DNA from: Candidatus Krumholzibacteriota bacterium
GTDB taxonomy: Bacteria > Krumholzibacteriota > Krumholzibacteriia > Krumholzibacteriales > WJIX01
Assembly: GCA_034520215.1 (NCBI GenBank)
Contig: JAXHNR010000002.1
Location: 78,060 to 142,059, forward strand
DNA: 64,000 nt
Direction of reading: 5' to 3'
The notes under the pieces were generated by a model that saw only the letters and a program-made list of their open reading frames with translations, searched no databases and was not told where the DNA came from. Position 1 is the stretch's first letter; every line of letters starts with the position of its first letter. A program made the translations under genes and the position numbers. Shown here in pieces: positions 7,338-50,494 of the stretch.

Positions 7338-7350
7338 AACTTCTCCCGGC

Positions 7351-28361: not shown

Positions 28362-31300
28362 CTACAAAGACGGTAACGTTACAATTACTTCAACACCCTG
28401 AGTGTCCGTTCTGTTCCTTAAAATTATCTCTCCCGCCATCTGGTCGACGATATTTCTGCATATTGCGAGTCCGAGACCCGTCCCGGTTGTCTTTGTCGAG
28501 AAATAGGGCTCGAAGAGTTTCTCCTCTACTTCACTCGAGAGACCCGTCCCCGTGTCCAAAACTTTGATCAGCGCCTTATCATCAACGCGGCTGGTTTTGA
28601 CAACAATCCTTCCGGGGCCTTCTATAGCCTCAATAGAGTTTTCGATTAGATTGTTAAACACTTTTCTCAATCCTTCTCTATCTGCATTGACCTCTATCTC
28701 TCCGTCCGGCTGAAAAACAATATCGATTTTTTCAATACCTCTGTATGACGAAATCTGTTCTTCGATAAACTCGTTCAGCTGTACCTTTTCAGCTTTCAGC
28801 TCCGAAACTCTTCCAAAACTCGAGAACTCGGAAGCTATGCGCCGCAGAATATCAGTATGCTTCATAATCGTATCTATACCGCTTTTGAATATCTCCTCGA
28901 ATTTTTCATCCTTTTTGCCGTAAGCCCGCCGCATAAACTGCGCCGAAAGTTTTATCGGTGTAAGAGGGTTTTTAACCTCGTGAGCTATCTGCCTTGCCAT
29001 TTCCACCCAGGCCGACAGCTTCTTTGATCTGATCAATTCTGTAAGGTCGTCAAACACGACTACTGTCCCGGCCTTTCCGCCGCTTTCCGGAAGAGAGGTC
29101 ACGACCGCTTTTATAGTCCTCTTCGCCTCGTCCGAATAGAGATCCACTTCTCTTACTTCGCCGCGCGCCCTGCCCAATGAAAAGAGATCGAAAAATGGTC
29201 TCAGCTCTTCCCGCTTGATATCTGAAGGTTTAGTCCCTATTACCCCTTCTCTCGATATGTTGAGGATTTTCTCTCCGGCCGGATTAAATGTAATAATCGT
29301 GCCGCTCTCATCGGAGGTTATAACTCCTGTAGCGGCGTTATCCAATATGGTTGCCAGATATTTCTGCCTGTCCAAAAGCTCCCTTCTCGCTTCCCTGAGC
29401 CCCGTCGTCATAGAATTAAAAGAATCGACAAGCTCACCTATCTCATCCGGTGCGCCGGCTTCCAGCTTGAACTCGAGGTCCCCTTCAATAATCTTTCTTG
29501 TCCCGCCTCTAAGCTGTGCTATCGGGGTGAATATCCTCCCGGCGAGAAAGACTCCGAGAGTTACAGAAGCCGCGAATAAAAGTGCTAAAAGACCCATCAG
29601 AAGCCCGCGGGTTTTATGTATCTCTTTCTGAACGAGTGTGGCCTGATACAGCAGCGGAACGGATAGAACTCCGAGCACAGAACCTTTCAGAGGTTTCATC
29701 GAAATTCCGGCAACATGATACGAATACTCGCCGAGCGATTCTGTGCCGATAACAGTTCTGCCTCCGCCGAGGGCGGCATCCGCGAACATCAAAGGCTCCA
29801 TCAGCGCATTTAGAAAGCCGCCCGTAAAAAGATCTCTCTGGCTTGAAGCGTTGATCATGCCTTTGTAGTAAATATTTACATTCTTCCCGAGTACCTGTGC
29901 TATCCCCCCGACAAATTCATCATCCATCCTGCGGCGGTAATAGAGATATCCCCCTGACGCGCCGGGAATAGAAATCGGTATTACCACCCCTCCGAATAAA
30001 TAAGGCGGGGAATACGTTATGGTAACTTCTTCCATTCTGCCGGTCTCAAACAGGTTCAGAGCATCTTCGATCCTGAAATTGCTCAGACTTTCATCCAGGA
30101 GTATCTCCGATCCGGTAAAGAGGGTGAACTGCGTAACTTCCTCCCTCGAGATATCCCTTATCCGGGGGCTTTCTTTACCTTCCAGAATGTCATTAAGATA
30201 CTGGCTTCCTGCGAAGGATTCAGCCTCGGATTTTATTGAATGCTCGATCAACGAGAATGCCGATTCAACCCCCGCTTCAGCTTCCCGGTTCGCTTCAGCT
30301 TTGTAGCGTTTTTTTATAAATCTGTTGGAAAACGCCCCCATTGCTACAACGGGAAGTATCGAAACAATAAAAAAGGACAGCAGTAATTTCTGCTTGAACC
30401 CGAGGGCTCCGGAGAAAGTCACATCCGGCGTCACGCTTCCCAGAACAGGCAGTTTCCGAATAACAAAAAGTACAACGAGAGAAAAGATCGTAAGGATAAC
30501 CTCAAGTGATACTACGGTTGCCCATTCAATAGTTCTTCCCGCCAACCCGGGGATCTGGTATCCCACGAGATACCCTTTCTCATCTTTGTCCAGATCCATT
30601 ATACAGCGGTATTTCTTCTCTCCGGCATCGATCTCAAACCATTCTCCGCTCTTTCCGGGAACAATGGCTCCGGTGTAGAGGAAAGGACTGGAAGATTCCT
30701 CGACCGCCCCCGATTCTATTCTGGCAACAAGCAAATTGTGCGGTTCATCCACTCTCCGGCGGAATCCCCCCTTCTCTTCCTTATGGAAAATCTCGGGTGT
30801 CTCGGGACTCCTTCTAGCCAGTAATCCGGTGTTCTCGAAGAAATACGGAATTTTTATCTCAACCTTGCCTATCTGTTTTCCTTCAATACTGTAAATCGGC
30901 GAAACGCCGATAAAGTAATAAGCCGCTCCTTTATTCGTTTCCTCCCTCTTCTGAATCACTCTCGGGCCCGGGAAAGATGTCTTATCTCCGGGCAGGTCAC
31001 GCGCGATGCCCAGCGGAATCCCCAGTGAAAATGTCGAGAATTTATTCCCCTTGTTGTTGTAGACGTCAATGAGGCACGGCAGATCGAATTTTCCGAGATT
31101 ACTCCCCGTCCATATTTCAAATGCCGCGGATTCTTCCTCTGAATCTACTAAAGAACTTACATTCTTATCATGAGATATATCTCTGCAGACATCCGGAAGA
31201 AAAGTGCCGATCCAGCTGTCTTCAGGATGGTTGAATTCATCAACCATCTCCCTGATTCTTCTCTTCTTTAATCTGTCATACCCTCCTCTCGCCGTCCCGT

Positions 31301-33227
31301 ATATAAGTAACGAGAAGATAAGAACAAGAAAGAAGGAAGAAAATATCACCGTTATGATCTCTTCTTTTCTCAGCATGGGGAAAATTTTCAAAGACATAAG
31401 CAGAATCGCGGCCACTGGTACAAGCTGTGTCCAGTTACCATTCAGCAGAAATGCCAAAAGAGACACCGTCAGAACAATTACAAGAACGAGCTCTTTCAAG
31501 CCGCCGTTCTTCCAGGCCAGAATCAGCCGTGAAACAAATATCAAAACAATAAAAATCGCTGAAACCGCGAAGAGAAGAGCGAGATGAAGAGAAAGAACCG
31601 GAGTTTCAAAAAAGCCGATATCAAGACCTACTATTTTTGGATTCGCGTTTCTGACAAGCCTCGATACCAGTTCAGAAGCGGCAACCGTTCCTGAAAATAG
31701 GAAAGCGGCGAGAAGGACTATTTTGCCCGCCGCTATGGCGGGATTAAACGAACCGGCGCGTAATATTCTTCTTTCCAGCACTCCCGGATAGAAAGTGCGA
31801 AATACCTTTATAGAACCAAACACAAAAAATAAACCAAAAAGAGATGTTAAAAGAAAATCGCCCGTCGTACGGAAAAGCCCCCCCGGCATATCATCCATGT
31901 ACATTACAGGATCGAAGAGATTCGTGCCGAGAAACGAACTCGGCATATTGAGCGACAGGAGAATGTGCCGAATCAAAGAAAGGAAAAACAGAAGGAGAGC
32001 AACCCTTCTAAGCATGAACCAGAATCCCTTCCCGCTTTCAAGCTTTCTCCTTGAATAAGTTCTGTAAATCCATATTGCGAGAATTGTTACAATCAATGTC
32101 AGCAACAACCCCGCCGTCAATGCCTTTTTTTCTTTCTTAAGTCTTTGTACTTCGTTGAAACTTCTTCCCCTCACGCGCAACCGGGCTAAGGGAAACCCCT
32201 CGGCCGAATTTATCACTCCGTAAAATCCTATTTCCCCGTTCGGATCAAAGTAAACCTTTGGTTCCTTTTCGTCCCCGACATCTCCCGGGAAGTCCTGCCT
32301 TCTAACCCCCCCAACCTGAAACGTAAAATCTATCTTTGCGTCATGTTCGGCTGAGAGAATTTCTTCCAGTCCTCTCTGGCGGATAAATCTGTTTTTCTTA
32401 ACGTAATTTACCTCCACGGGAGTATCCACAACAACTCTTCCCCAGTCATACTTCTGTTCTTTTATGAGCAAGGTGTAGATCTTAGTTTTCGCGGCGAAAG
32501 TGCCACGGGAGGAATGCGGCATTTCCCCTAAAAAACGGGGTTTTCCGCCCCACGCGACCCTTTCTCCGTCCTTTGTATAAATCTGCACACCTATTTCATT
32601 GCCGGATTCTACCCCTTCATATTTCCCCCTCGCCACTGAATCGACCTCGCGTATCAGGTAGGCCCTTTCAGTCCGGGTGAGTTTATCAACCCCGATATCT
32701 TCAACTATTTTACCTGATTTATCCGCGGCGGCTGCGATGAAGGATTCAACATCCTCTAACCTCTCTTGCGCGTCCGTGTATATTTTCTCCAGATGACTAA
32801 TCTCTTCACGCTTCCAGCTGTCCCTGTCGCCGGCGGCGGGGAAGAGCAGCAATATCAATCCCATCAAAAGCAAAAGTGAAATTACTAGAACCGGCTCTTT
32901 TTCTCCACCCGGAGCCGTTATTTCATCTTCTCTTATCCCCTTTTTCTTATGAAGGCCCGGCCCGACGATATCTTCCAGTTTTTTTGGATACCATTTTTTC
33001 CGGCTCTTAAGCTGTCCGCCTTTTCCGAGAAGCATTTTGCCGGGGGGAGGAAGAACAATAAAGGCGATAAATCCCGCGTCCAGAAGGATAAACATCAGCC
33101 AAAGAGGTGACGGCAGGCTTGTATTGCCGAGGGATAAAAAAGAGACTAAAAAAGCTATAGAGCCGGCGAGGAAGGCCCAAAGAGAGATATAAAAGAATTT
33201 CTGTTCTTTTTCATAATCCAAGCGCAA
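28362..33227 (-). CDS. Giant (1621 aa) polytopic sensor histidine kinase: >1100-aa multi-TM N-terminal region + HAMP + PAS + HisKA + HATPase_c
   Basis: H-box QIAHEVKNPLTPIKLSAQFM (NtrB/NtrY type), PAS (ILDNAATGVITSDESGTIITFNPAGEKIL), HAMP (DEIGELVDSFNSMTTGLREAR), ATP lid DTGTGL...GTGLGLAICRNIV; many TM helices in the first 1100 aa. Confidence 0.75.
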   Translation of the reverse strand: MRLDYEKEQKFFYISLWAFLAGSIAFLVSFLSLGNTSLPSPLWLMFILLDAGFIAFIVLPPPGKMLLGKGGQLKSRKKWYPKKLEDIVGPGLHKKKGIREDEITAPGGEKEPVLVISLLLLMGLILLLFPAAGDRDSWKREEISHLEKIYTDAQERLEDVESFIAAAADKSGKIVEDIGVDKLTRTERAYLIREVDSVARGKYEGVESGNEIGVQIYTKDGERVAWGGKPRFLGEMPHSSRGTFAAKTKIYTLLIKEQKYDWGRVVVDTPVEVNYVKKNRFIRQRGLEEILSAEHDAKIDFTFQVGGVRRQDFPGDVGDEKEPKVYFDPNGEIGFYGVINSAEGFPLARLRVRGRSFNEVQRLKKEKKALTAGLLLTLIVTILAIWIYRTYSRRKLESGKGFWFMLRRVALLLFFLSLIRHILLSLNMPSSFLGTNLFDPVMYMDDMPGGLFRTTGDFLLTSLFGLFFVFGSIKVFRTFYPGVLERRILRAGSFNPAIAAGKIVLLAAFLFSGTVAASELVSRLVRNANPKIVGLDIGFFETPVLSLHLALLFAVSAIFIVLIFVSRLILAWKNGGLKELVLVIVLTVSLLAFLLNGNWTQLVPVAAILLMSLKIFPMLRKEEIITVIFSSFFLVLIFSLLIYGTARGGYDRLKKRRIREMVDEFNHPEDSWIGTFLPDVCRDISHDKNVSSLVDSEEESAAFEIWTGSNLGKFDLPCLIDVYNNKGNKFSTFSLGIPLGIARDLPGDKTSFPGPRVIQKREETNKGAAYYFIGVSPIYSIEGKQIGKVEIKIPYFFENTGLLARRSPETPEIFHKEEKGGFRRRVDEPHNLLVARIESGAVEESSSPFLYTGAIVPGKSGEWFEIDAGEKKYRCIMDLDKDEKGYLVGYQIPGLAGRTIEWATVVSLEVILTIFSLVVLFVIRKLPVLGSVTPDVTFSGALGFKQKLLLSFFIVSILPVVAMGAFSNRFIKKRYKAEANREAEAGVESAFSLIEHSIKSEAESFAGSQYLNDILEGKESPRIRDISREEVTQFTLFTGSEILLDESLSNFRIEDALNLFETGRMEEVTITYSPPYLFGGVVIPISIPGASGGYLYYRRRMDDEFVGGIAQVLGKNVNIYYKGMINASSQRDLFTGGFLNALMEPLMFADAALGGGRTVIGTESLGEYSYHVAGISMKPLKGSVLGVLSVPLLYQATLVQKEIHKTRGLLMGLLALLFAASVTLGVFLAGRIFTPIAQLRGGTRKIIEGDLEFKLEAGAPDEIGELVDSFNSMTTGLREARRELLDRQKYLATILDNAATGVITSDESGTIITFNPAGEKILNISREGVIGTKPSDIKREELRPFFDLFSLGRARGEVREVDLYSDEAKRTIKAVVTSLPESGGKAGTVVVFDDLTELIRSKKLSAWVEMARQIAHEVKNPLTPIKLSAQFMRRAYGKKDEKFEEIFKSGIDTIMKHTDILRRIASEFSSFGRVSELKAEKVQLNEFIEEQISSYRGIEKIDIVFQPDGEIEVNADREGLRKVFNNLIENSIEAIEGPGRIVVKTSRVDDKALIKVLDTGTGLSSEVEEKLFEPYFSTKTTGTGLGLAICRNIVDQMAGEIILRNRTDTQGVEVIVTLPSL

Positions 33228-33307
33228 CAGGGCTCCAGGTACAAACAGTTAAACGACTTACAAAGCACTCCACCTGAAAACTCAAAAGAGATCATTCCTG
33301 ATTACAT

Positions 33308-34477
33308 TTATGCCTTGGATCTCCGGGCTTTTGCAATTCTGTTCTGCCATTCGACAAGGACCGGGCTTGCCACAAATATAGATGAATAGGTTCCGACGAC
33401 AACCCCTATAAGCAGAGCAAACGCGAAATCGTGAATAACTTCACCTCCGGTAAAATAGAGGAAAAGAACCACTATCAGAGTTGTAAGTGATGTAACTATC
33501 GTTCTGCTCAACGAGTCGTTTATGGAAATATTTATCATTTTATTATATGATTCCCGGCGGCGAATACTGAAATTTTCCCTGATTCGGTCAAATATAACAA
33601 TAGTATCGTTCAAGGAATATCCGACTATAGTAAGAAAAGCGGCTATAACAACAAGAGAGAGTTCCTTGCCGGTTATCGAAAAAATCCCCAGCGTTATAAG
33701 TATATCGTGAATTAATGCTATGATAGCCCCAACCGCGAATCTGAATTCGAACCGCCAGCTGATATATATAAGTATTCCGAAGAGAGAAATTACAATAGCC
33801 GCCCAGGCTCTTTTCTTAAGTTCTTCCCCTATCTTGGGGCCCACAGTTTCAGTGCGTCTTACTGTGATCTCTCTGGACGGGAAACTCTTGTTTATCTGGG
33901 TCTTTAATTTATCAGCGGCTTTAGATTCTATCCCCTGAAACGGGAGATTAAAGGCTATACGGCTTTCCGTTTCCATAGTTGCCGCCGTTATTCCAACGCC
34001 GTTTTCTTTAATATCTTCTTTCAGCGTTTCGAGAGGAGGAATATTTCTTCCCTCAACCACTATAAGATTCCCGGCTTTTTCACCGCCGCTTAGGTCATCC
34101 ACCATTTCCTTGATTGACAATATCTCCCAGCCGCTTTCAGGCGCGACACTATTAAGCGCGTCGAGGAGGTTGCCGGCAGCTATCCTGCCTTCTTTTATCT
34201 CTTCAACCTTTATAAGATATTCATTATTCTGGCCGAACTCCTGAATATTGGCATTTTCATACCCGGCTTTTCTCACAACATCCCGCAGGTCGTTAATGGG
34301 TACCGCTTTATCAAACATGATCTGCACAAGCGTTCCGCCTTCAAAATCGATACCAAGATCGGGGCCTCCGCGAATCAGAAGTGATCCCAGCCCGGCCAGG
34401 ATTACTATCAGGGAAATAATGAAAGCTTTATTCCTGAATTCCACAAAGTTAATTTCTGTTTTGCCAAAAAATCTCAT
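33308..34477 (-). CDS. secF: Protein translocase subunit SecF
   Basis: SecF N-term (FFGKTEINFVEF...), six-TM SecD/F core; directly downstream of secD. Confidence 0.85.
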   Translation of the reverse strand: MRFFGKTEINFVEFRNKAFIISLIVILAGLGSLLIRGGPDLGIDFEGGTLVQIMFDKAVPINDLRDVVRKAGYENANIQEFGQNNEYLIKVEEIKEGRIAAGNLLDALNSVAPESGWEILSIKEMVDDLSGGEKAGNLIVVEGRNIPPLETLKEDIKENGVGITAATMETESRIAFNLPFQGIESKAADKLKTQINKSFPSREITVRRTETVGPKIGEELKKRAWAAIVISLFGILIYISWRFEFRFAVGAIIALIHDILITLGIFSITGKELSLVVIAAFLTIVGYSLNDTIVIFDRIRENFSIRRRESYNKMINISINDSLSRTIVTSLTTLIVVLFLYFTGGEVIHDFAFALLIGVVVGTYSSIFVASPVLVEWQNRIAKARRSKA

Positions 34478-34498
34478 GCTTTCTCCTCAATTCATATA

Positions 34499-36232
34499 TC
34501 ATATACTGAGCTTCTTCACTCGACCACTTCTTGTCCAAAAATCGAAAACCATTCTGCTGAACACCAATGCCGTAAAGATACATCCCAGAATCCCTATGCT
34601 CAGTGTAGTGGCAAAACCCTTCACGGGCCCTGTTCCGAATTGCCAGAGCACAAAAGCTGTTATAAGAGTAGTCAGGTTAGCATCCACAATCGTCGTAAAA
34701 GCCTTAGAGAAGCCGGCATCCACAGAAGATCTTACTGTCTTCTTCTTGTTTAATTCCTCTCGAATTCTCTCAAATATAAGAACATTCGCGTCAATTGCCA
34801 TTCCTATAGTCAGAATAACTCCGGCCAGTCCGGGCAGTGTCAGCGCCGCTCCCAGGTAGGCGAGAAGCCCGAATACTATAAGAAGGTTGAATATCAAAGT
34901 AGCTGAAGCGATGACTCCGGATATTTTGTAATAAACAAATATAAAAAGAACTACAACCGCCAGCCCGAGCAGCGCCGCTTTTATACCCATTCTGATAGAG
35001 TCGCGGCCTAGAGTCGGCCCGACAGATCTTTCTTCTATAATCCTCATGTCGGCGGGCAAGGCTCCGGCCCTCAATACTATTGACAAGTCCCTGGCCTCTA
35101 TGTCGGTGAAATTCCCTTCGATAACTCCCCGGCCGCTTGGTATTTTACTCCTTATTACAGGATAGGATTTAATTTTCCCGTCCAGTATTATCGCCGTAAA
35201 TCTTCCCACATTTTTGCCCGTAAAAGAGGCTAGATGCCTGGCGCCTGTTCTATTGAAATTGAATTGCACCAGAAGTTTCTGCGGGGCTTCGGGGTCCGGT
35301 TTCGGGGTCGCGTTATTTAGATTCTTTCCGGAAACCATCTCGTCATTCGCCAAAAGGAAGAGAAATTTGCCTCTTCCCCCTCTTTCAGACAGAGGTACCC
35401 ATTCATCGAACCACATAAAATCACTGTCTTCGGGAATCACTCCCATTCCATCAAGCCGGGAGAGGAGCCTTCTAACGCGTTCTATATTATCCTCTTTTAC
35501 AACAACCCAGTCCCTGTAAAATCTAAAAAGAAGGGAGGTAAAAGGTTTTTCCTTATTTACAGTTTCTAAGGGGATATTCCCCAGACCGGCCTTATCACTT
35601 TCTCCGAGAAGAAGAGAGTCAGCATCGCTCCGGGCGCTCTCGAAATCTGTGCCCGCCGTATCTTGAGTTTCTTCGGAAAGAGCCGGTATTGCCCCCAATG
35701 TGTCTGCCGGCTGGTCTTCCACTTCGACAATAGAATCCCCGTGCTGCTTTAAAAGCGCTTCATCGAACCTTTTGAGAACCGCGGCCAGTTCCTTCTGTTC
35801 ACGCACCAGACGCCATTCAAGCATCGCGGTCTCACCGATCAGTCTCTTCGCTCTCTCCGCGTCCTGCAGGCCGGGCAGCTGCACGATAATTCTGTTTCTT
35901 CCCTCTTTCTGGATAACCGGTTCCGACACTCCGAATTGATCCACTCTATTTCTTATTACTTCAAGGGCTCTGTCTACTACATCCTTCTTCTCTTCTTCTT
36001 TCAGTTTTGAGTCGTCAACTTCCAGCACGAGATGCATTCCGCCCTTAAGGTCAAGCCCGAGCTTAAGAGATTTGTTCATAAGTTCATCAAACTCTTCGGG
36101 CTTTTCGATCCTCATCTTCTCTTTTTCCTGCTCAGACATAGTTACAAGCTTGAAAGTAGGGTAGAGAAAGTAGAGTGCCCCGATAAAAACCAGAAACACA
36201 ATAATCAGCTTTGTTCGCAAATCCTTTTTCAC
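34499..36232 (-). CDS. secD: Protein translocase subunit SecD
   Basis: N-terminal TM then LKLGLDLKGG periplasmic domain, C-terminal 6-TM SecD/F core; adjacent secF. Confidence 0.85.
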   Translation of the reverse strand: MKKDLRTKLIIVFLVFIGALYFLYPTFKLVTMSEQEKEKMRIEKPEEFDELMNKSLKLGLDLKGGMHLVLEVDDSKLKEEEKKDVVDRALEVIRNRVDQFGVSEPVIQKEGRNRIIVQLPGLQDAERAKRLIGETAMLEWRLVREQKELAAVLKRFDEALLKQHGDSIVEVEDQPADTLGAIPALSEETQDTAGTDFESARSDADSLLLGESDKAGLGNIPLETVNKEKPFTSLLFRFYRDWVVVKEDNIERVRRLLSRLDGMGVIPEDSDFMWFDEWVPLSERGGRGKFLFLLANDEMVSGKNLNNATPKPDPEAPQKLLVQFNFNRTGARHLASFTGKNVGRFTAIILDGKIKSYPVIRSKIPSGRGVIEGNFTDIEARDLSIVLRAGALPADMRIIEERSVGPTLGRDSIRMGIKAALLGLAVVVLFIFVYYKISGVIASATLIFNLLIVFGLLAYLGAALTLPGLAGVILTIGMAIDANVLIFERIREELNKKKTVRSSVDAGFSKAFTTIVDANLTTLITAFVLWQFGTGPVKGFATTLSIGILGCIFTALVFSRMVFDFWTRSGRVKKLSI

Positions 36233-36660
36233 TTTACCTCACTTTATTAAAACTTAAATCACAAACTTTATCGTATAATTCCAGCTCATATACACACACT
36301 TATCCGTTAAAAGACCGTACTCTCCCCTTAACGGTTTAGAATATCTAATTTACAACAATTTTACCTCTATAGTCAAAGATAAAATATAATAGAAGCTCAT
36401 AAAATTTTCCCTTTCCCCATTATAACACTAACAATCATAAGATATTATCCACGGCCGGGGGCCTAATCACCCTTTTTTTCGGTTTTCCCGGATAATGTAG
36501 GTATCGCCGCAAAAGCCGCCGCGGCCGCCTTTAACACAGCCGGGCGCGTAAATCTTGACAACCTTAGCGCCGGAAAGCAAACCGGGTCCGGCATATTTCT
36601 TTCTTGAATCGGCGGGCAGGCAAGCTTATATTAAGCACTAACCACAGAAAGGAAAATAAT

Positions 36661-36870
36661 ATGCAGCCCCTAAACTACCTTTGCCCCAAGTGCGGAGGCA
36701 ACCGTTATGAAACGGGAGAGATCCGCACCACCGGCGGTTTTCTAAGTAAGATTTTCGACGTTCAATCAAATAAATTTACTACGGTCGTATGCTCGAAGTG
36801 CAGATATACGGAAATCTATAAAGCAGACAGCAGTATGCTCGGTAATATCTTCGATTTCTTTACAGATTAA
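36661..36870 (+). CDS. Predicted nucleic-acid-binding Zn-ribbon protein (69 aa)
   Basis: CPKCGG...CSKCRYTE two CxxC pairs; AGGAAAATAAT RBS before ATG at 36661 (track start 36604 is further upstream). Confidence 0.55.
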   Translation: MQPLNYLCPKCGGNRYETGEIRTTGGFLSKIFDVQSNKFTTVVCSKCRYTEIYKADSSMLGNIFDFFTD

Positions 36871-37033
36871 TATTTGTTTTATTCATGCCGCGAGAGGTTT
36901 TTATGTTTTCTGATACAGGGGTTTTTATATATTTTTATTCTGTTTTTGTGTATGATTGCAAACGCGGCCATTGCCGAGCGGAGATCGAAGGATTTGAAGC
37001 ATTTCTTAAACTGGAAGCGGAAATTATCTCAAT

Positions 37034-38341
37034 ATGAGTGACTCGGATATTCTGAAAAAGCGAAACAGAGAACTTAAGGTTTTCAATTCAATCGCGAGAG
37101 AACTTAACGCTACAGTAAACCTCAGTGAAACCCTCCAAAAGGCGCTCACTGAAACCCTTCAGCTTATGGAGCTTGAAACCGGATGGATCTACCTCCTTGA
37201 TGACGAGTCCGGCGAAATGACTTTGTCTGCCGATGAAAATCTCCCCCCCGGCCTCAAAGAAAACTCTGAAGTTATGGAAGGTCCGTGTAACTGCCAGAGA
37301 AAATTCGCCAATGACAAGCTGACCTTCCCCGTCAATGTGGATAGTATCGCCTGCAGCCGTTTAAGTAAGTTAAATAAAGGGAATAACGGGCTTAAATATC
37401 ACACCAGTATTCCTCTCTATACGCGCAACGGAGCCAAACTCGGCATTCTGAATCTGGCAAGGCGGAAGTGGCACAAAATGAACGATAATCAACTGAATCT
37501 TCTTAATACTATTGCCGATTTCATAAGCGTGGCTGTTGAAAGATCAAAGCTCTTCGAGGAACTTCAGAGAATTAAACAGAACAAAATCGACGTTATGGAG
37601 CATGAGCTTCAGGCCGCCCGCGATATGCAGATGTCTCTTCTTCCGGACAAGCCGCCAAAAATCGCCGGAATAGAACTCTCAGCCGTCTGCGTTCCTTCAA
37701 GAGAGGTAGGGGGAGACTACTATAACTATCTCCGTCTGGATGATAATAAATTAGCTATAGTACTGTCCGATGTCTCCGGGAAAGGGATGCAGGGAGCTAC
37801 AATTGCCATGAGGTTCAACGAAATTCTCCGCTATGAAGTAAGGGGGGTTACCGATCCGGCGGAAATCCTTAAACGGCTCGATAAATCCTTACTCTCGATA
37901 ATGCCGCCCACTATGTTCATAACAGCCGGAATCGCCGTTCTGGATACCGAAGAGAAATCGCTGAATATAGCAAGCGCCGCTAATCCGGAAATATACCATT
38001 ACTCGGCAAAAAAGAACAGCGTTCGGCCGCTCGAGATCACAGGGCTGCCGCTTGGAATCTTAGAGGAACAGATATCGGATGAGCCTTTCAAAAGCGGCGA
38101 AGTATTATTAGAACCGGGCGATGCGGTAGTTTTCACCTCTGACGGAGTCGAAGAAGCAAGAGATGAGGCAGGATCGTTCTACGGCCGCGAAAGACTCTCA
38201 GACGTTATTCTAAGAATCTGCGGGGAAAAGAAGGGAGCGGAAGAAATCCGCGCCGGAATCACCGAGGATTTAAAAGATTTTACTTCAGATTCACCACAGA
38301 GTGACGACATAACCATTATAGTTCTCTCGGTCGATCCTTAA
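37034..38341 (+). CDS. GAF-domain PP2C-type serine phosphatase (SpoIIE/RsbU family)
   Basis: N-terminal GAF; C-terminal PPM/SpoIIE domain with GGDYYNY and SDGVEEA motifs. Confidence 0.75.
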   Translation: MSDSDILKKRNRELKVFNSIARELNATVNLSETLQKALTETLQLMELETGWIYLLDDESGEMTLSADENLPPGLKENSEVMEGPCNCQRKFANDKLTFPVNVDSIACSRLSKLNKGNNGLKYHTSIPLYTRNGAKLGILNLARRKWHKMNDNQLNLLNTIADFISVAVERSKLFEELQRIKQNKIDVMEHELQAARDMQMSLLPDKPPKIAGIELSAVCVPSREVGGDYYNYLRLDDNKLAIVLSDVSGKGMQGATIAMRFNEILRYEVRGVTDPAEILKRLDKSLLSIMPPTMFITAGIAVLDTEEKSLNIASAANPEIYHYSAKKNSVRPLEITGLPLGILEEQISDEPFKSGEVLLEPGDAVVFTSDGVEEARDEAGSFYGRERLSDVILRICGEKKGAEEIRAGITEDLKDFTSDSPQSDDITIIVLSVDP

Positions 38342-38360
38342 AGATCAGAAAAGCTGTTGC

Positions 38361-38711
38361 CTAATCCTTCTGGGAATTGGCTTTCTGTTTACGTTTGCAT
38401 TTATACATATTATTTTCAGCTTCCTTTAGGACTTTATCCATCCCCGTATTCATGTTTTTCTTGGTTGCAGTCCCTAAGGCCAGGGAAAGAGCTTTCCCTC
38501 TAATGAAAATTTCTTTGCACCCGGCAAATATCCTTTCGCATATTATCTTTAAATCATCATCTGTTGCTTGAGGCAAAAAGATGATAAATTCATCCCCTCC
38601 ATAACGGGCAACAATATCTTCCTTTCGGCAGGAACTTCTCAAAACTTCCGCTGCTTCCTTTATTGCTTCATCTCCTTCCCTGTGTCCGTACCTGATGCTC
38701 GGACCGGACAT
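38361..38711 (-). pseudogene. C-terminal fragment of a GGDEF (diguanylate cyclase) domain; truncated gene remnant
   Basis: ORF begins inside the domain: ...GDEAIKEAAEVLRS...VARYGGDEFIIFLP; no N-terminal half (DxLTGLxNR) is detectable upstream, where a GC-rich DUF456 gene sits. Confidence 0.5.
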
Positions 38712-38868
38712 CTCAGGTCGTTTCCATCGTTTTCCCCATGCGCACTAGGATCCGGTGTTTGATCAGATCCCGGCGCAGCGGGATAACGCCATCCGGTATA
38801 ATCCGCGTTGTTCCAGGATACGAACTCCCGCTGGATTCCCTTGGACGTACCACTGGCGGTATGATTGA

Positions 38869-39384
38869 TCAGGTCCAGGACCGAACAATGAATATCACGA
38901 GTATTCCCGTCGCGATGGCGAACTTGGCGAAAAAGGCCCATAGCTTGCCGACGAATGCCCAGAACCCCACGTTGATAGCGTTCTCCATCTTCTTGTACTG
39001 GATGTATTCGGCGGCTACCGCCCCGGCGAAGGCTCCGAACAGCCCGAAGATCACGCTTCCTATGACCGGCATGGCGGACGTCCCCAGCACAGCTCCGACA
39101 ATGCCGCCAGCCAGCGCCCCGACAGCACCCCACTTCGAGGCGCCTTTCTTAATCGCGACGGCCGACCCAAGCAGCACTTCTATGACCTCCCCGATCACCA
39201 CCAGCACGACCATCACCACCCACCACTGCCACCCGATAACGGTGAACTTGTTGGCCAGATCATATATTAATATGACTCCCAGACTAATCCATCCTCCCGG
39301 CAGTCCCGTAAATATGAGAAGATTTAAGAGGAATACCAAAAAATAGAGGAGGACGAGTCCCGTGTGCTGCAGAACCGATACCAA
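38869..39384 (-). CDS. DUF456-family small membrane protein
   Basis: Gly/Ala-rich TM helices, N-terminal FTGLPGGW motif typical of DUF456; markedly higher GC and different codon usage than flanks. Confidence 0.55.
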   Translation of the reverse strand: MVSVLQHTGLVLLYFLVFLLNLLIFTGLPGGWISLGVILIYDLANKFTVIGWQWWVVMVVLVVIGEVIEVLLGSAVAIKKGASKWGAVGALAGGIVGAVLGTSAMPVIGSVIFGLFGAFAGAVAAEYIQYKKMENAINVGFWAFVGKLWAFFAKFAIATGILVIFIVRSWT

Positions 39385-39530
39385 AACCTGCTCCTTTCAC
39401 AAGTCCATATAACATGAACAACTCGCCGTAATGAAACAGCCGCCGACTAGAACGATGACAGCTCTTATCTTGAACATGAACCTTAAAAATTCTAAGACAT
39501 CCGTCTTTTTATGTCAACGGCATCCCGGCC

Positions 39531-39837
39531 AGGACTTTCCCCAATTTTTATTACCACGCAGGAGATTAATTAATTCGTAAAGTATGCGGCTGAATGATAT
39601 TTTCAAAATCGTGGTCAATTCCCCCGGCGAGTGAATTGTACGCTCTGCGCCTCGGGCTCGCTCTTTCTGCCCCTTCGGGTCAGAAATCCTTGCCCGCTCG
39701 CCCTCCGGAGGGTTTTGAAAATATCATTCAGCCGCACTCATCAGCAATGAAAGCCCTATTCCACTTACTAATCCTGATAACTGATTGTATCTCGCAATGT
39801 TATTACAATACTTGCCGAATTTTCAGAGGGAACTCCA
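39531..39837 (+). mobile_element. 307-bp MITE-like non-autonomous element, copy 1, flanked by 10-bp direct repeat CATCCCGGCC
   Basis: Direct repeats at 39521..39530 and 39838..39847; ends GGACTTTCCCC.../...GGGAACTCC; internal 25-bp inverted repeat GCGGCTGAATGATATTTTCAAAA / TTTTGAAAATATCATTCAGCCGC around a GC-rich core; ~85-90% identical to copies 2 and 3 over the 3' two-thirds. Confidence 0.7.
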
Positions 39838-39959
39838 ACATCCCGGCCTCTCAGAAACAGACATAATATAAAGAAGTTGCCTTGAGGCCTTCTTTGGCTT
39901 ATAATCTCAAACCGTTAAATAATTAGCTTGTTTTTTATAACCGGTCTGGATGTTTACGA

Positions 39960-40226
39960 ATGAAAACTTTTATTACTATTTTTGCCACAGTTCTTTTCGC
40001 GGAGCTTGGAGACAAAACACAGATCGCCACTTTGCTCTTCGCGACAGATAAAGAGAATCCTAAATCAATGGTGTTCTTCGCCTCCGCGGCCGCGCTTGTC
40101 ACAGCTTCGGCGATCGCTGTCATGCTGGGAAAGATGTTCGAAAATTATGTAAATCCTAAATATCTTTCATGGATAGCGGGCGCGGGGTTTATTGTTATCG
40201 GGATCTGGACGATCGTTAAAGCTTAA
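39960..40226 (+). CDS. UPF0016 (GDT1/TMEM165) family membrane protein, single-repeat form
   Basis: Signature AELGDKTQIATLLFA (E-x-G-D-K-T), 88 aa, 3 TM. Confidence 0.65.
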   Translation: MKTFITIFATVLFAELGDKTQIATLLFATDKENPKSMVFFASAAALVTASAIAVMLGKMFENYVNPKYLSWIAGAGFIVIGIWTIVKA

Positions 40227-40347
40227 ATGTAACGGTTTTTTCAATACGCTGTGGGGGTCCTTTGCGGCAACTCTTCTTTCTTTTCTTTAGTATAATCTGA
40301 TATACATACTATACTTTCTATACTTTTTTATCTTAAAAAACTATCAT

Positions 40348-40680
40348 ATGAAAGGAAACCTGAAGAATGAGACCAGCATTAAATTTTGGGGTATAAAAGC
40401 AGAAAACGCGCGGTGGCTCACAATTCACGGAATCACTATCGAAGTTGAAAATAAACTCGAAGGGTTAGCCGTGAGCGGCATATACACAGGCGCGGATAAT
40501 CTGAGCGGTTTTTCCGCGTCAGCAGTTAACTGTTTTTATAACCGGCAGACAGGCATCACCGCGGGTATCTTTAATTACGCGGAAAATCTATCCGGAGTAC
40601 AGATTGGCCTCTTAAATATAGCCCGGAATAATCCGGCCTGGGCGCGATATCTTCCCGTTTTTAACGCTCATATCGATTAG
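40348..40680 (+). CDS. Hypothetical repeat protein (NLSGxQIGLLN-type tandem motifs); possibly a fragment
   Basis: Repeated G..G..N...ENLSGVQIGLLN segments; no signal peptide; short. Confidence 0.35.
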   Translation: MKGNLKNETSIKFWGIKAENARWLTIHGITIEVENKLEGLAVSGIYTGADNLSGFSASAVNCFYNRQTGITAGIFNYAENLSGVQIGLLNIARNNPAWARYLPVFNAHID

Positions 40681-40899: not shown

Positions 40900-41979
40900 A
40901 TGAAAAAAGACGAACTTAAAAAAATGACAAAGAAAGAGCTTATAGCCCTCGCCCGGTCAAAGAAGATCCGCGTTACAACGAGAATGCTGAAAGCTGATTT
41001 GATCGACACGATCTACAAAGCTATCAGGTCAGGTAAGCCGAAGAAAGCAGCCGGCGGCGAGCCTAAAAGAAAAAAGGGGCGATCCGGTAAGCGTCCCTCC
41101 GCTAAAAAAACAGCAAGGAAGAAAACGGAAAAAAGCGCCATTGACTCCGGTGACCGGACAATCAGGCAAAAAGCTGTTGCCGGAAAATATTTTCTGAAAA
41201 AAGATTCTGGCCCGGATTTAATAAAAAACGAGACTTCGAGCCTTCCGGAATACGATATTACACGTATTGTGTGTATGGTCCGGGATCCACACTGGATATT
41301 CGCATACTGGAAAATATCTTCAGAAGAATATAATACTCTGAAAAGGAAATTCGGCTCATCACTTAAAAACTTTAGAACTGTTCTCCGTGTATATGAGGAC
41401 TCCGAAGGCGGAAAGAAACATTTCGATATCGATATCCCGGGCGATTCAAACAACTGGTATATCAATGTATCTGAGAGGTGCAGATACAGAGTGGGGATAG
41501 GAATGATTTCGCCCGATGGAATCTACGAAGAAATAGCTCTTTCCGATACTGTCGAAACTCCGCCCGAAGGGGCAAGCAAATACAGCGATGAAAAATGGTT
41601 CGTGTCCGATGCCGCTTTCAATGAAATCATTTCAGCTTCCGGGGACTTGAAGGAAAAGACCGGCTCTGAAGAATATTTAAAGGCTGAAAAGAACTCCAGC
41701 ATAGACTCTGAAACTGTTTCATCGTTCAGCGGCACCGAAAAAGGCCGGGAAGAGGATCCGCGGCCGTCTATTAAAATGGAGCTCGTCGTTTACGGAGCCG
41801 CCGGGAAGAACTCCCGGATCAATCTTCTTGGGAAAGATATCGAACCTAACGAGGACGGTTCTTTCTCAATCCGCATGGCCCTTCCCGAGGGTGAATTCGA
41901 ACTTCCCGTAAAACTGGTTTCCTCAGACGGCAAATTGAAAAAAACAGTTAAAGCAAAGATTAAAACGGAAACCCCTTAA
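40900..41979 (+). CDS. Rho_N-like + K/R-rich linker + DUF4912-like protein
   Basis: N-term MTKKELIALARSKKIRVTT (Rho termination factor N-terminal-like), basic low-complexity linker, then DITRIVCMVRDPHWIFAYWKIS domain. Confidence 0.55.
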   Translation: MKKDELKKMTKKELIALARSKKIRVTTRMLKADLIDTIYKAIRSGKPKKAAGGEPKRKKGRSGKRPSAKKTARKKTEKSAIDSGDRTIRQKAVAGKYFLKKDSGPDLIKNETSSLPEYDITRIVCMVRDPHWIFAYWKISSEEYNTLKRKFGSSLKNFRTVLRVYEDSEGGKKHFDIDIPGDSNNWYINVSERCRYRVGIGMISPDGIYEEIALSDTVETPPEGASKYSDEKWFVSDAAFNEIISASGDLKEKTGSEEYLKAEKNSSIDSETVSSFSGTEKGREEDPRPSIKMELVVYGAAGKNSRINLLGKDIEPNEDGSFSIRMALPEGEFELPVKLVSSDGKLKKTVKAKIKTETP

Positions 41980-41995: not shown

Positions 41996-43600
41996 ATGAC
42001 TAACGGTCACAAAGGTTATCTAAGTCTGGTATTACACGCCCATCTGCCATATGTGCGGCATCCGGAGCACGCACGTTTTCTCGAAGAAGACTGGTTCTAC
42101 GAAGCGCTCACAGAGACCTACATTCCGCTTCTTGATATGTTTAACAGGCTGAAGGATGAAGGCGTTGATTTCCGCTTCACAATATCGCTTACCCCAACAC
42201 TTCTGTCAATGTTGGCGGATCCCCTTCTGCAAAACAGATATATCCGTCATCTGGACAGCTTGATAGAGCTTACCCGAAAAGAAATGACCCGTACCAGGTG
42301 GATGCCGGACCTTCTCGCTCTGGCGCGAATGTATCACGACAACTTCATAAAATGCCGCGGTATCTTTGCCGAAAAATACCACAAAGATCTCATCTCCGCC
42401 TTCAGATTCTTTCAGAATGAAGGAAACCTGGAAATACTGACGTGCGGCGCCACCCACGCTTTCATGCCTCTTGTAAAAAACAGAAAAGCCGCGGATGCTC
42501 AGATTAGAATCGCCGTCGATCAGTATAAAAACTTCTTCGGAAAGAACCCCGCCGGAATCTGGCTGGCTGAATGCGGCTACACACCCGGGTTGGAAGAGAT
42601 TCTGAAAGCAAACGGAATAAAATACTTCTTTACCGATTCCCACGGCATACTAAACGGCGAGCCGAGACCACGCTACGGCGTGTTCGCTCCCGTGAGCTGC
42701 CCGAACGGCGTCGCCTTATTCGGCCGCGACAACGAATCTTCAAAACAGGTCTGGAGCGCCAAAGAAGGCTACCCGGGAGATTACCAGTACAGGGATTTCT
42801 ATAGAGATGTGGGGTTCGATCTGGATTACGATTATATTAAACCCTATCTTCACGGTGACGGCAACAGAATCAGCCTGGGTATAAAATATTACAGAATAAC
42901 CGGCAAAGGCGAAGAAAAACAGATTTACGACCCCTCTGCCGCCGCAGAAAAAGCCGCCCTTCACGCGGGCAACTTCATGTTCAACAGAGAAAAACAGATC
43001 GAGCATCTCGAAGGATTCCTCGGAACCAAACCGATAGTTGTTTCTCCATACGACGCTGAGCTTTTCGGTCACTGGTGGTATGAAGGCCCCTTGTGGCTGG
43101 AACATCTTATGAGAAAACTGCATTACGATCAGAACTCGATAGTTCCGGTAACTCCGAGCGAATACCTGCGGGCCCGATCTGAAATTCAGGTAGTAAAACC
43201 GTCTATGTCCTCCTGGGGGTACAAAGGGTATAATGAAGTGTGGCTGAACGGAAGTAATGACTGGGTATATCCCCATCTGCACATCATGGAAGACAGAATG
43301 GTTGAGCTCGCCGGCAGATTTCCCTCAGCCTCCGGACTGCCCGAAAGGGCGCTTAATCAAGCCGCGCGCGAGCTACTTCTCGCCCAAAGCAGCGACTGGG
43401 CTTTCATAATGAAAACGGGAACAATGGTAGAGTACGCCCACAGCAGGACGAAAAGCCATATATCCCGCTTCGACAGATTATACCATTCCATTCTTTCTTC
43501 CCGTATAAATGAATCGTGGCTCAAAGAAATAGAAAGACGGGACAACATATTCCCCAACATTGATTACAAGGTTTACTCATCAACCGAGAATCAGTCATGA
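41996..43600 (+). CDS. Glycoside hydrolase family 57 protein (GH57 1,4-alpha-glucan branching-enzyme type)
   Basis: GH57 hallmark YLSLVLHAHLPYVRHPE; 534 aa typical of GH57 GlgB-like enzymes; 4-bp overlap with next GH57 gene. Confidence 0.75.
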   Translation: MTNGHKGYLSLVLHAHLPYVRHPEHARFLEEDWFYEALTETYIPLLDMFNRLKDEGVDFRFTISLTPTLLSMLADPLLQNRYIRHLDSLIELTRKEMTRTRWMPDLLALARMYHDNFIKCRGIFAEKYHKDLISAFRFFQNEGNLEILTCGATHAFMPLVKNRKAADAQIRIAVDQYKNFFGKNPAGIWLAECGYTPGLEEILKANGIKYFFTDSHGILNGEPRPRYGVFAPVSCPNGVALFGRDNESSKQVWSAKEGYPGDYQYRDFYRDVGFDLDYDYIKPYLHGDGNRISLGIKYYRITGKGEEKQIYDPSAAAEKAALHAGNFMFNREKQIEHLEGFLGTKPIVVSPYDAELFGHWWYEGPLWLEHLMRKLHYDQNSIVPVTPSEYLRARSEIQVVKPSMSSWGYKGYNEVWLNGSNDWVYPHLHIMEDRMVELAGRFPSASGLPERALNQAARELLLAQSSDWAFIMKTGTMVEYAHSRTKSHISRFDRLYHSILSSRINESWLKEIERRDNIFPNIDYKVYSSTENQS

Positions 43601-49381: not shown

Positions 49382-50494
49382 ATGATTATAGGTGTACCAA
49401 AGGAGATTAAAGAGGATGAATACCGCGTTGCTCTTATCCCCGTCGGCGCGGAAACCCTTGTAAAAAACGGCCATAAGGTTCTCGTGCAGAAAGGGGCGGG
49501 AAAAGGGAGCGGCTTTGAAGACAAGGAATACCGTGAAGCCGGCGCGGCAATAGTCGCCAAAGCTGCTGATATCTTCCGCCGCAGCGACATGATCATAAAG
49601 GTAAAGGAACCTCAGCCCGTTGAGATCAAAAAGTGCCGTAAAAACCAGATTATATTTACCTACTTCCATTTCGCCGCCAGCCGCTCACTTACCGAAGGCA
49701 TGGCACGGAGCGGAGCAACGTGTATAGCGTACGAGACAATGGCGGATGAAGACGGTTCACTGCCTCTTTTGATACCTATGAGCGAAGTGGCGGGAAGGAT
49801 GGCCGTGCAGGAAGGCGCGAAATACCTCGAACGTCCCATGGAGGGAACCGGTCTTCTTCTCGGCGGAGTGCCGGGGGTTGAACCCGCCAAGGTTGCCATA
49901 ATCGGCGGAGGTATAGTCGGGGCAAACGCCGCGAAAATGGCCGCCGGGCTGGGAGCGAAAGTGACAATCCTCGACATCGATCTCGAGAGATTGCGCTATC
50001 TCAGCGACGTCCTGCCGGCTAATGTAACTACGTTAATGTCCAATCCGGAAAATATCCGCAGATCGGTAGCTGAATCGAATCTCGTAATAGGAGCTGTTCT
50101 TATAAGGGGAGCAAAAGCCCCGCGTCTGGTTACGAAGAAAATGCTCAAGTCTATGAAAAAGGGTTCCGTCATTGTGGATGTCGCTGTTGATCAGGGCGGC
50201 TGTATAGAAACCATTAAGCCCACAACACACACCAACCCGACTTATATCATTAACGGCGTAGTCCACTACGGCGTCGCAAATATGCCGGGAGCTGTCGCGA
50301 GAACCTCAACATACGCTCTTACAAACGCCACTCTTCCTTTCGCCGTCAAGATCGCAAACGACGGCTTTGAAAAGGCGGCAAAGAAGAGCGGAATTATATG
50401 GACGGGTGTAAATATACTAAACGGCAGCATTACCGACAGAGCGGTAGCTAAAGCCTTCAGGAAGAAATACACACCGCTTGAAGAACTTCTGTAG
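49382..50494 (+). CDS. ald: Alanine dehydrogenase
   Basis: N-term MIIGVPKEIKEDEYRVALIP, NAD-binding VAIIGGGIVGANAA, 370 aa. Confidence 0.9.
   Translation: MIIGVPKEIKEDEYRVALIPVGAETLVKNGHKVLVQKGAGKGSGFEDKEYREAGAAIVAKAADIFRRSDMIIKVKEPQPVEIKKCRKNQIIFTYFHFAASRSLTEGMARSGATCIAYETMADEDGSLPLLIPMSEVAGRMAVQEGAKYLERPMEGTGLLLGGVPGVEPAKVAIIGGGIVGANAAKMAAGLGAKVTILDIDLERLRYLSDVLPANVTTLMSNPENIRRSVAESNLVIGAVLIRGAKAPRLVTKKMLKSMKKGSVIVDVAVDQGGCIETIKPTTHTNPTYIINGVVHYGVANMPGAVARTSTYALTNATLPFAVKIANDGFEKAAKKSGIIWTGVNILNGSITDRAVAKAFRKKYTPLEELL

Follow-up and report, generated by a model that had tools for sequence, protein, structure and literature searches.

A 2,028-bp segment (positions 38350 to 40377) of the window, the 64,000-nucleotide stretch of a Candidatus Krumholzibacteriota genome analyzed here, is probably a lineage-specific patchwork, consisting of a GC-rich DUF456 gene re-acquired by lateral transfer, a remnant of a GGDEF gene and a MITE that was inserted later. 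The evidence comes from comparisons with sister genomes, from base composition and codon usage, from the points at which homology ends and from a second assembly of the same junctions.

A variable site to the right of a GAF-PP2C gene

The left flank of the segment is an intact forward-strand gene (37034 to 38341) for a GAF-PP2C (SpoIIE-type) phosphatase, recognized by matches to Pfam SpoIIE (1.6e-43) and GAF_2, whose product had 91% amino acid identity to its counterpart in sister loci L052 and L053. These loci matched the window with 90.8% nucleotide identity over 6.2 kb (32106 to 38349) and then diverged 8 nt past the PP2C stop codon, where unrelated genes occupied the site. Locus L056 aligned again from 40378 (93%), and the intervening segment was missing from this ∼91 to 93% identical sister genome. 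Both the DUF456 gene and the GGDEF ORF were missing from the syntenic site in L052, L053 and L056 (91 to 93% nucleotide identity) and in the more distant L057 (73 to 77%), each sister genome being covered over 13 to 20 kb. SecD identity to the window was 96% in L052 and L053 and 82% in L057. These alignments point to a site that varies among close relatives. In the sister genome, the region to the right of PP2C is occupied by another insert, 7 kb or longer, so that the ancestral state there is only partly polarizable.

A sequence-only reading of the window had proposed that an insertion truncated a diguanylate cyclase gene and had suggested looking in relatives for an intact GAF-PP2C/GGDEF arrangement. 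No such pair was detected: L052 and L053 had unrelated genes at this position and L057 had neither PP2C nor GGDEF. As the sister genome lacks the whole segment, GGDEF fragment included, no native pair was disrupted.

At the right edge, a 110-aa forward-strand ORF (40348 to 40680) matched NCBIfam NF047436 (LA_2272_repeat), and homology to relatives began at 40378. L056 carried a longer version, of at least 202 aa, and that of L057 was 440 aa (7129 to 8451). This ORF is the 3′ remnant of a gene for an LA_2272-type repeat surface protein with a parent of ∼440 aa and a second gene truncated by the event that produced the patch.

Composition and codon usage of the DUF456 gene

The GC-rich stretch reported earlier next to the GGDEF ORF was confirmed as the top GC peak in the 64 kb with sliding windows of 300, 400, 500 and 700 nt (0.617 at 300 nt, relative to a mean of 0.461 and a standard deviation of 0.046). 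A likelihood scan placed an island of 59.1% GC at 38686 to 39235 (2 × dLL of 37.5, the second-highest value in the window being 24.6), with a change-point for its left edge at 38675 to 38686. The extent first proposed, 38712 to 39440, was indeed GC rich (54.6%; window mean, 46.1%) but not evenly so: positions 38900 to 39250 reached 60.7%, and the block began at approximately codon 46 inside the DUF456 gene and extended 178 nt beyond its stop codon.

The presence of a DUF456 membrane-protein gene was borne out by a PF04306 match of 85.2 bits (cutoff, 29.4; E = 6.6e-24) in which residues 25 to 168 aligned with profile positions 2 to 138 of 139. This YqgC-like gene (38869 to 39384, reverse strand, TTG start) is intact; its length of 171 aa is shared by almost every one of the ∼30 closest homologues, its product keeps all of the family-invariant residues (17 invariant columns across 21 sequences, including that of the window), and dN/dS relative to relatives was 0.10 to 0.22. 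The 5′ leader (39385 to 39403, reverse strand) contains the Shine-Dalgarno sequence AAGGAG and retained blastn homology to L004 and L005 until 39396 and to L060 until 39403. A candidate sigma-70-like promoter (TTGACA-17-TAGAAT; 39489 to 39517, reverse strand) is proposed from its consensus match, at 11 of 12 positions. As the gene is intact and has a Shine-Dalgarno sequence, a promoter-like site and signs of past purifying selection, its product is predicted to be an expressed inner-membrane protein. A 202-aa antisense ORF (38738 to 39346) is a GC-rich shadow ORF.

GC3 of the DUF456 gene was 0.719, as compared to 0.514 expected from amino acid composition and window codon usage (z = +5.7), while the 41 other window ORFs ranged from 0.34 to 0.58 with a highest z of +3.7. 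Amino acid composition was considered as the source of the high GC and set aside, as the expected GC was 0.486 and the observed GC was 0.558, with most of the excess being held by third positions. The adjacent noncoding 178 nt (38691 to 38868, reverse strand; GC, 0.562) are also GC rich (55% in the 157 nt from 38712 to 38868), which favours a cause at the level of the region over one at the level of translation. Codon likelihoods per codon were −1.15, −1.16 and −1.19 with models from L004, L060 and L001, respectively, and −1.24 with the window model, for which the baseline was 64 kb of a genome of >1 Mb. Of five other window genes put to the same comparison, four fitted the window model best, and the GGDEF fragment fitted marginally better with that of L058. 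The DUF456 gene is, therefore, compositionally foreign, with a codon usage nearer to that of GC-rich relatives than to that of its own genome.

Judged by its GC content, the 178-nt 3′ flank would have travelled with the gene. No homology to it was detected by blastn or tblastx in any fetched locus, and the same searches gave no sign that it is the remnant of a donor neighbour (RND pump, HTH or ∼165-aa protein). It had no Rfam family match, an RNA fold z of −2.75 and no U-tract terminator. A drop in GC3 over codons 16 to 45 had suggested a mosaic gene in which 45 native 5′ codons were joined to a foreign 3′ part by homology-facilitated illegitimate recombination. This is not claimed, as L001, L004 and L060 likewise have low GC3 over their first 45 codons and segment identities showed no convincing difference.

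Homologues, gene order and the source of the DUF456 gene

The closest DUF456 homologues had 64 to 79% amino acid identity and were located on contigs of 54 to 66% GC, with a GC3 like that of their neighbours. None of >79% identity was present among 5.8 billion clusters, while the same sister population does provide 91 to 96% homologues of the genes neighbouring this one in the window. Several of the homologues adjoin SecD/SecF genes 63 to 76% identical to those of the window, at least three of their genomes are relatives by SecD/SecF identity and one member of the homologue cluster is named Candidatus Krumholzibacteriales. The distant best match anticipated by the sequence-only reading was, therefore, not obtained. 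Among the matches listed, a peptide-pattern scan of contigs returned mostly 30 to 43% identical DUF456 proteins from Gemmatimonadota and Planctomycetota, which were of little use for synteny. Thus, the proposal of horizontal acquisition stands insofar as the gene has a foreign composition and codon usage and is missing from close relatives, but its distant donor does not. The transfer looks to have occurred within the lineage, and we infer that the donor was a GC-richer (∼54 to 59%) relative, most plausibly within Krumholzibacteriales.

Gene order bears on how the gene reached this site. In L004, L005, L061 and the P0015 contig the order is secD-secF-DUF456-∼165 aa-kinase, the sensor kinase beside DUF456 in the GC-rich relatives being 1,620 aa. 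In L052 and L057, as in the window, secF is directly followed by the kinase, with no DUF456 gene between them. Since the GC-rich relatives keep the gene after secF and the low-GC clade of the window lost it there, the window copy is best read as a lateral re-acquisition of a lost orthologue. The best DNA identity to the gene was only 75 to 76% and restricted to the gene itself, so that the evidence for transfer and its direction is indirect; the case for transfer draws on base composition, gene position and the lack of the gene in sister genomes.

The strongest alternative, although unlikely, is vertical descent, with an ancestral copy after secF having shifted ∼4 kb locally and the high GC3 arising from constraint or GC-biased repair. 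The conserved secDF neighbour in the lineage and the short distance of the window copy from secD (2.6 kb) are consistent with such a shift, as is the 5′ dip in GC3 shared with L001, L004 and L060; moreover, the 64 to 74% amino acid identity to SecDF-linked relatives parallels that of SecD/SecF (63 to 76%, the SecF range as well) and is close to the value expected under vertical descent. However, a co-inherited neighbour should have shifted in composition too, and SecD and SecF of the same genome have GC3 values of 0.49 and 0.44. The noncoding 3′ flank is also GC rich, codon likelihood prefers GC-rich donors, and L052 and L057 have the gene at neither the secF site nor the patch site. A neighbor-joining tree, to be read as a gene tree only, placed the window protein with P0002 and P0003 (from L060 and L001, 54 to 56% GC; bootstrap, 169/200), a type not linked to SecDF, and apart from the SecDF-linked copies.

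The GGDEF ORF is a 3′-terminal fragment

The earlier description of the adjacent 116-aa ORF (38361 to 38711, reverse strand) as starting in the middle of a GGDEF domain, with no N-terminal half upstream, proved accurate. The ORF covers positions 49 to 159 of 161 in PF00990 and 53 to 163 of 168 in TIGR00254, short of the ∼160 positions of a complete catalytic domain, and the missing N-terminal part was absent from all three upstream frames. The homologous part spans 38364 to 38690; the first seven codons, ATG included, derive from the adjoining GC-rich DNA. In all of the best 150 GGDEF representatives the alignment begins at query residue 7 to 9 or later, and tblastn matches of six GGDEF homologues, most of them with long N-terminal regions, to the whole window all end at 38690 or 38687. 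At the nucleotide level, a 34%-GC Atribacterota contig (L058) had 76.7% identity, from 38690 to 38395 only. Since DNA and protein homology both end at 38690, next to the GC change-point, the 38690/38691 join is a true breakpoint. A search of the window for a displaced N-terminal half detected only an unrelated GGDEF-like gene (11240 to 12214; ∼30% identity).

GGDEF homologues of 273 to 1,091 aa matched the ORF by their C-terminal ∼100 residues only, and no N-terminal sensor or dimerization module was found in it. One of them, P0175 (398 aa, with a long N-terminal region), was 60% identical over the shared part and is read as putatively PAS-PAS-GGDEF; the parent of the fragment was probably a PAS-GGDEF gene. 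The P0049 contig was rejected as a guide to the full-length parent, as the contig end cuts the gene. In comparison to PAS-GGDEF diguanylate cyclases such as P0175, the 109 retained residues are colinear with the C-terminal two-thirds of the domain and include the RxxD I-site and the GG(D/E)EF motif, the translation reading ...CRKEDIVARYGGDEFIIFLP... with RKED intact five residues upstream of GGDEF. In contrast to these cyclases, the fragment has neither the N-terminal sensor region (putative PAS) nor profile positions 1 to 48, and begins with seven unrelated GC-rich codons. In GGDEF domains, the first core beta-strand and the metal-binding Asp lie within the missing positions. We infer that the ORF is a noncatalytic remnant, one that should not be annotated as a diguanylate cyclase. 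The proposal that an insertion truncated a diguanylate cyclase gene was, therefore, correct as to the breakpoint and incorrect as to a native gene, as the fragment belongs to the patch.

It is very unlikely that the ORF is a functional stand-alone protein, such as a mini-receptor binding c-di-GMP via its I-site. Such a role could draw on 116 open codons with an ATG, two intact motifs and an annotation as a protein in NCBI, but must be set against the loss of profile positions 1 to 48, the failure of any homologue to align to the first six residues and the absence of the ORF from sister genomes. Furthermore, no conserved short orthologue, which would have told against the sequence-only reading, was present among 1.8 billion representatives, the short matches being contig-end fragments such as P0049.

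The MITE and the GDT1 gene

MITE copy 1, delimited by comparison of repeat copies and by its duplication, is 308 bp (39531 to 39838, no strand assigned), with a core of GGACTTT...AACTCC at 39532 to 39836, and is flanked by a 10-bp target duplication, CATCCCGGCC, at 39521 to 39530 and 39839 to 39848. The window contains three copies (303 to 305 bp, 68 to 96% identity) with duplications of 10, 13 and 9 bp that differ in sequence at each copy, and a long internal hairpin with a DNA fold z of −6. The element thus resembles known MITEs in being short (∼305 bp), noncoding and multicopy, with imperfect terminal inverted repeats (GGAGTTYCCC), target-site duplications of 9 to 13 bp and a strong hairpin. 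Neither a parent transposase nor a known family was identified, there was no Rfam match and the element was not found in L052, L056 or L057. The target-site duplication noted earlier is genuine, but the element, although 5′ of the DUF456 gene, is not immediately so: 147 nt separate it from the start codon. As it has its own duplication and sits in the DUF456-GDT1 intergenic region, it was inserted independently of the arrival of DUF456; the suggestion that the element landed with the insertion was not upheld, and nothing connects the two mechanistically.

Divergent from DUF456 is a half-size GDT1/UPF0016 membrane-protein gene (39960 to 40226, forward strand; PF01169, 2.2e-22) with an ELGDKTQ motif and a host-like composition (GC3, 0.50). 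The GDT1/UPF0016 family includes Mn2+/Ca2+ exporters. It is conceivable, but very improbable, that the patch would be an adaptive manganese-handling islet in which DUF456 acts with this divergent gene; the phenotype of YqgC, described below, is in keeping with such a role. No homologue of the GDT1 gene was detected in any fetched locus, and its adjacency to DUF456 recurred neither in about 50 other DUF456 loci nor anywhere among the about 60 loci fetched. If true, a manganese islet would assign DUF456 a transport-linked function that can be tested.

A possible order of events

The patch, between GAF-PP2C and the 5′-truncated LA_2272-repeat gene, looks like the product of several events of illegitimate recombination and insertion. 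A low-GC GGDEF gene would have contributed only its last ∼110 codons (38350 to 38690), and a GC-rich piece, 713 bp or longer and reaching from 38691 to at least 39403, would have brought in the whole DUF456 gene with its ribosome-binding site and the 178-nt 3′ flank. The 38690/38691 join would have cost the GGDEF gene its sensor region together with the initial third of the GGDEF domain and, by chance, given an in-frame ATG. The 308-bp MITE would have transposed later into the divergent DUF456-GDT1 intergenic region, generating the 10-bp duplication.

That the GC-rich block is instead an assembly artefact, a chimera with a co-occurring GC-richer Krumholzibacteriota population, is scarcely credible. 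In its favour, the window comes from a metagenome-assembled genome, there are related populations with 70 to 79% identical DUF456 genes and the block is short (∼0.6 to 0.7 kb) with sharp edges. However, two exact joins inside 0.7 kb would be required, and the flanks share no homology able to seed a chimera. Moreover, the independent Logan assembly of SRR26473340 reproduces DUF456, the 178-nt flank, the GGDEF fragment, PP2C and secD with 100% identity over 4.7 kb (window positions 39610 to 34869), which speaks against an assembly chimera of the metagenome-assembled genome.

Relation to known systems and significance

The locus consists of known gene families and is explained by known processes; it is ordinary genome patchwork and not a new system. 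As in small islets at variable hot spots that bear the compositional signature of recent lateral transfer, its GC3 and codon usage are atypical, close relatives are polymorphic for its presence, genes are truncated at its edges and a mobile element is nearby. It differs from them in its anchors: no integrase ORF was found within 38350 to 40377, no tRNA in the whole window and no flanking direct or att-like repeats besides the duplication of the MITE itself, so that the integrase, tRNA/tmRNA target and flanking direct repeats of a classical integrative island were all absent. It also differs in that the donor would be from the same lineage, the gene replaces a lost orthologue and the patch mixes pieces of opposite GC deviation (40% and 59%).

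YqgC of Bacillus subtilis (DUF456/COG2839/PF04306) belongs to the same family and is also a small multipass membrane protein (160 aa, as compared to 171 aa here) with glycine-zipper-like segments, as in the window protein. YqgC is the only DUF456 member with a phenotype, a yqgC-sodA double deletion being Mn hypersensitive (bioRxiv 10.1101/2024.02.14.580342). In contrast to yqgC, the window gene has no sodA neighbour; the conserved neighbours in this lineage are secD/secF and the sensor kinase.

The significance of the locus hardly goes beyond cleaner annotation, in which the 116-aa “GGDEF domain-containing protein” and the 110-aa LA_2272-type ORF should both be flagged as gene remnants. It is also a tidy example of lateral transfer from a GC-richer relative probably replacing a lost orthologue, at a variable spot beside the conserved secDF block that appears to gather fragments from donors of 34% and ∼55 to 59% GC. 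Finally, the recurrent secD-secF-DUF456 linkage, together with the manganese literature on YqgC, provides a weak lead on the function of DUF456; if the manganese-islet reading is true, the secDF-DUF456 linkage in relatives would hint at a role in membrane homeostasis.

Results

The GC-rich islet described in the sequence-only reading was confirmed as the strongest enrichment of the window (46.1% GC), being the top peak at sizes of 300, 400, 500 and 700 nt and reaching 0.617 at 300 nt in sliding windows over the 64 kb (mean, 0.461; standard deviation, 0.046). A likelihood scan of the window placed the optimal island at 38686-39235 (59.1% GC; 2*dLL, 37.5) and the runner-up at 49671-49970 (2*dLL, 24.6). 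The latter interval, the second-highest GC peak (60.3% over 300 nt), sits within a 370-aa gene (49382-50494) whose counterpart in L057, a locus of a more distant low-GC relative, is alanine dehydrogenase (AlaDh_PNT); with an overall GC3 of 0.55, this gene is no outlier. The DUF456 gene (38869-39384, − strand) had a GC3 of 0.719 versus 0.514 expected from its residues and the window codon usage (z = +5.7), ruling out membrane-protein amino acid content as the cause of the high GC; the other ORFs (n = 41) ranged from 0.34 to 0.58. The 178 nt from the DUF456 stop codon to the GGDEF homology had 56% GC. Opposite DUF456, a 202-aa antisense ORF (38738-39346, + strand) that a naive longest-ORF call picked in its stead is not a gene but a shadow frame kept free of stop codons by the high GC.

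The DUF456 protein is of full length and belongs to PF04306 (85 bits, Pfam profile); its homologues at 64 to 79% identity are nearly all 171 aa. The gene retains a Shine-Dalgarno sequence (AAGGAG) and a candidate promoter-like site, and dN/dS was 0.10 to 0.22 versus relatives. The fetched DUF456 loci were GC rich (L001, 54%; L060, 56%; L004, 59%; L005, 62%; L061, 66%), and in them the GC3 of the neighbours equalled that of DUF456. Loci L004, L005 and L061 belong to relatives of the window organism, with identities of 65 to 75% for SecD, 63 to 76% for SecF and 43 to 46% for the giant kinase; one member of the homologue cluster is named Ca. Krumholzibacteriales. A taxonomically distant donor was therefore not upheld, the homologues lying in the same lineage. 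By codon likelihood, DUF456 fitted the L004, L060 and L001 models better than the window model, which best fitted four of five other tested window genes; the GGDEF fragment was non-discriminating. DUF456 grouped with P0002 and P0003, the proteins of L060 and L001 (bootstrap, 169/200), where the gene is flanked by DUF362 and RND pump genes. The true donor is unsampled, because the best DNA identity was 75 to 76% and limited to 38866-39403.

The order secD-secF-DUF456-(~165 aa)-kinase was seen in L004, L005 and L061 and, by Pfam-annotated gene order, on the contig of homologue P0015. These GC-rich relatives (L004, L005/L007, L061, P0015 contig) have kept a 1,620-aa HAMP/PAS histidine kinase followed by DUF4159 in this array. 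In the window, only 80 nt separate secF (33308-34477, −; secD, 34499-36232, −) from the 1,621-aa sensor kinase (28362-33227, −), with no DUF456 between, and secF likewise adjoins the kinase in sister contig L052 (SecD, 96%) and in L057 (SecD, 82%), suggesting that the low-GC clade (44 to 46% GC; window, L052, L057) lost DUF456 and the ~165-aa gene from the ancestral place. The order possibly reflects a functional link of DUF456 to SecDF. In the window, DUF456 is found instead 2.6 kb upstream of secD. Vertical inheritance followed by relocation is unlikely, as the composition (non-coding flank included), the absence of DUF456 from the sister genomes and its tree placement all argue against it. 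The best reading of DUF456 is a recent re-acquisition, as an intact gene, from a relative of higher GC.

Sister contigs L052 and L053 were 90.8% identical to window 32106-38349, diverging 8 nt past the stop codon of GAF-PP2C (37034-38341, +) into GDSL lipase, kynureninase-like aminotransferase and toxin-antitoxin-like genes. This cargo spans at least 7 kb in L052 (6231-13179) and comprises the lipase, the class-V aminotransferase, two unknown proteins, a PIN-domain toxin and a HigA/IrrE-like HTH/M78-peptidase gene preceded by a small partner. The site right of PP2C is a recurrent insertion point. A further sister contig, L056 (93%), resumes homology at 40378, within a 110-aa ORF (40348-40680, +) corresponding to the tail end of an LA_2272-type repeat protein of ~440 aa, which L057 has intact. 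This GLANV-repeat surface protein occupies 7129-8451 in L057 and 1-609 in L056. The window genome has lost the signal peptide and about 330 codons to deletion, since homology to relatives begins only at 40378. In L057 the Zn-ribbon gene (window 36604-36870, +), the repeat-protein gene and DUF4912 (40900-41979, +) follow one another with nothing between, and beyond DUF4912, where GH57 (41996-43600, +) comes next in the window, colinearity extends for >10 kb. GAF-PP2C is present in the window and sister (91% aa identity) but missing from the syntenic site in L057 and is hence a putative older insertion between the Zn-ribbon and repeat-protein genes.

These boundaries indicate that 38350-40377 (2,028 bp) is a window-specific mosaic of a low-GC GGDEF tail (341 bp), the GC-rich DUF456 segment, a MITE and a half-size GDT1 gene whose composition resembles the host's. 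As the whole patch, GGDEF fragment included, is window specific, no native GAF-PP2C/GGDEF pair was disrupted, contrary to the earlier proposal.

The GGDEF ORF (38361-38711, −) does begin mid-domain, covering only positions 49 to 159 of 161 in PF00990 and 53 to 163 of 168 in TIGR00254. DNA homology to its best homologue (76.7% nt and 64% aa identity), on the 34%-GC contig L058 labelled Ca. Humimicrobiaceae, stops exactly at 38690, as do tblastn matches of six GGDEF homologues, the majority of which have a long N-terminal region. The 1.8 billion representatives were searched exhaustively, and the 150 best matches all aligned from query residue 7 to 9 or later, most having several hundred residues N-terminal to the aligned part (e.g., P0175, 398 aa, putatively PAS-PAS-GGDEF). 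Codons 1 to 7, ATG included, are part of the GC-rich block, and the GC change-point (38675-38686) coincides with the breakpoint. That this 116-aa ORF, which retains the GGDEF and RxxD motifs, encodes a functional mini-GGDEF protein seems quite improbable; it reads as a putative gene remnant because no sensor module is left and the catalytic domain is missing its N-terminal third. The aligned segments are window 38395-38690 and L058 96-391; for a contig assigned to Atribacterota, 76.7% is high between phyla and may suggest cross-phylum transfer of the GGDEF gene or mis-binning. An assembly chimera is very improbable, since an 18-kb contig of the SRR26473340 Logan assembly, which stops inside the MITE as expected of a short-read assembler, is 100% identical to window 39610-34869 and crosses the DUF456/flank/GGDEF/PP2C junctions.

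The repeat beside DUF456 (39531-39838) proved to be a genuine MITE-like element, as claimed, with three copies each bearing its own target duplication: cores 39532-39836 (CATCCCGGCC), 54726-55028 (GGTAAAATATTTT) and 55834-56136 (TATTACTAT). The ~305-bp family has termini GGAGTTYCCC...AACTCC and duplications of 9 to 13 bp. A ~150-nt internal perfect-stem hairpin gave a DNA fold z of −6; there was no Rfam match, no parent transposase was seen, and the element was missing from sister loci L052, L056 and L057. The GDT1/UPF0016 gene (39960-40226, +), divergent from DUF456, encodes a half-size, single-repeat protein (88 aa, ELGDKTQ motif), and no gene for a partner half is close by; although part of the window-specific segment, the GDT1 gene has a host-like GC3 (0.50). 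The only functional literature on DUF456 ties B. subtilis YqgC, with SodA, to Mn tolerance (bioRxiv 10.1101/2024.02.14.580342). Given that work, adjacency to a GDT1-family gene may be suggestive; none of about 60 other loci showed it.

Discussion

The patch probably arose at a variable hot spot through a series of illegitimate insertions and deletions, in the course of which DUF456 would have been re-acquired laterally and the MITE would have transposed independently of its arrival. Searches for an integrase, a tRNA, an Rfam family and flanking repeats were all negative. Of the proposed horizontal islet truncating a GGDEF gene, the observation and the likely foreign origin of DUF456 stood, while the distant donor and the disrupted native pair did not. 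Each component (DUF456/YqgC, a GGDEF remnant, GDT1/UPF0016 and a MITE) is of a known family, and the process, which yields a small compositionally atypical islet with gene remnants, is a textbook one. The observation is real, and the biology is ordinary.
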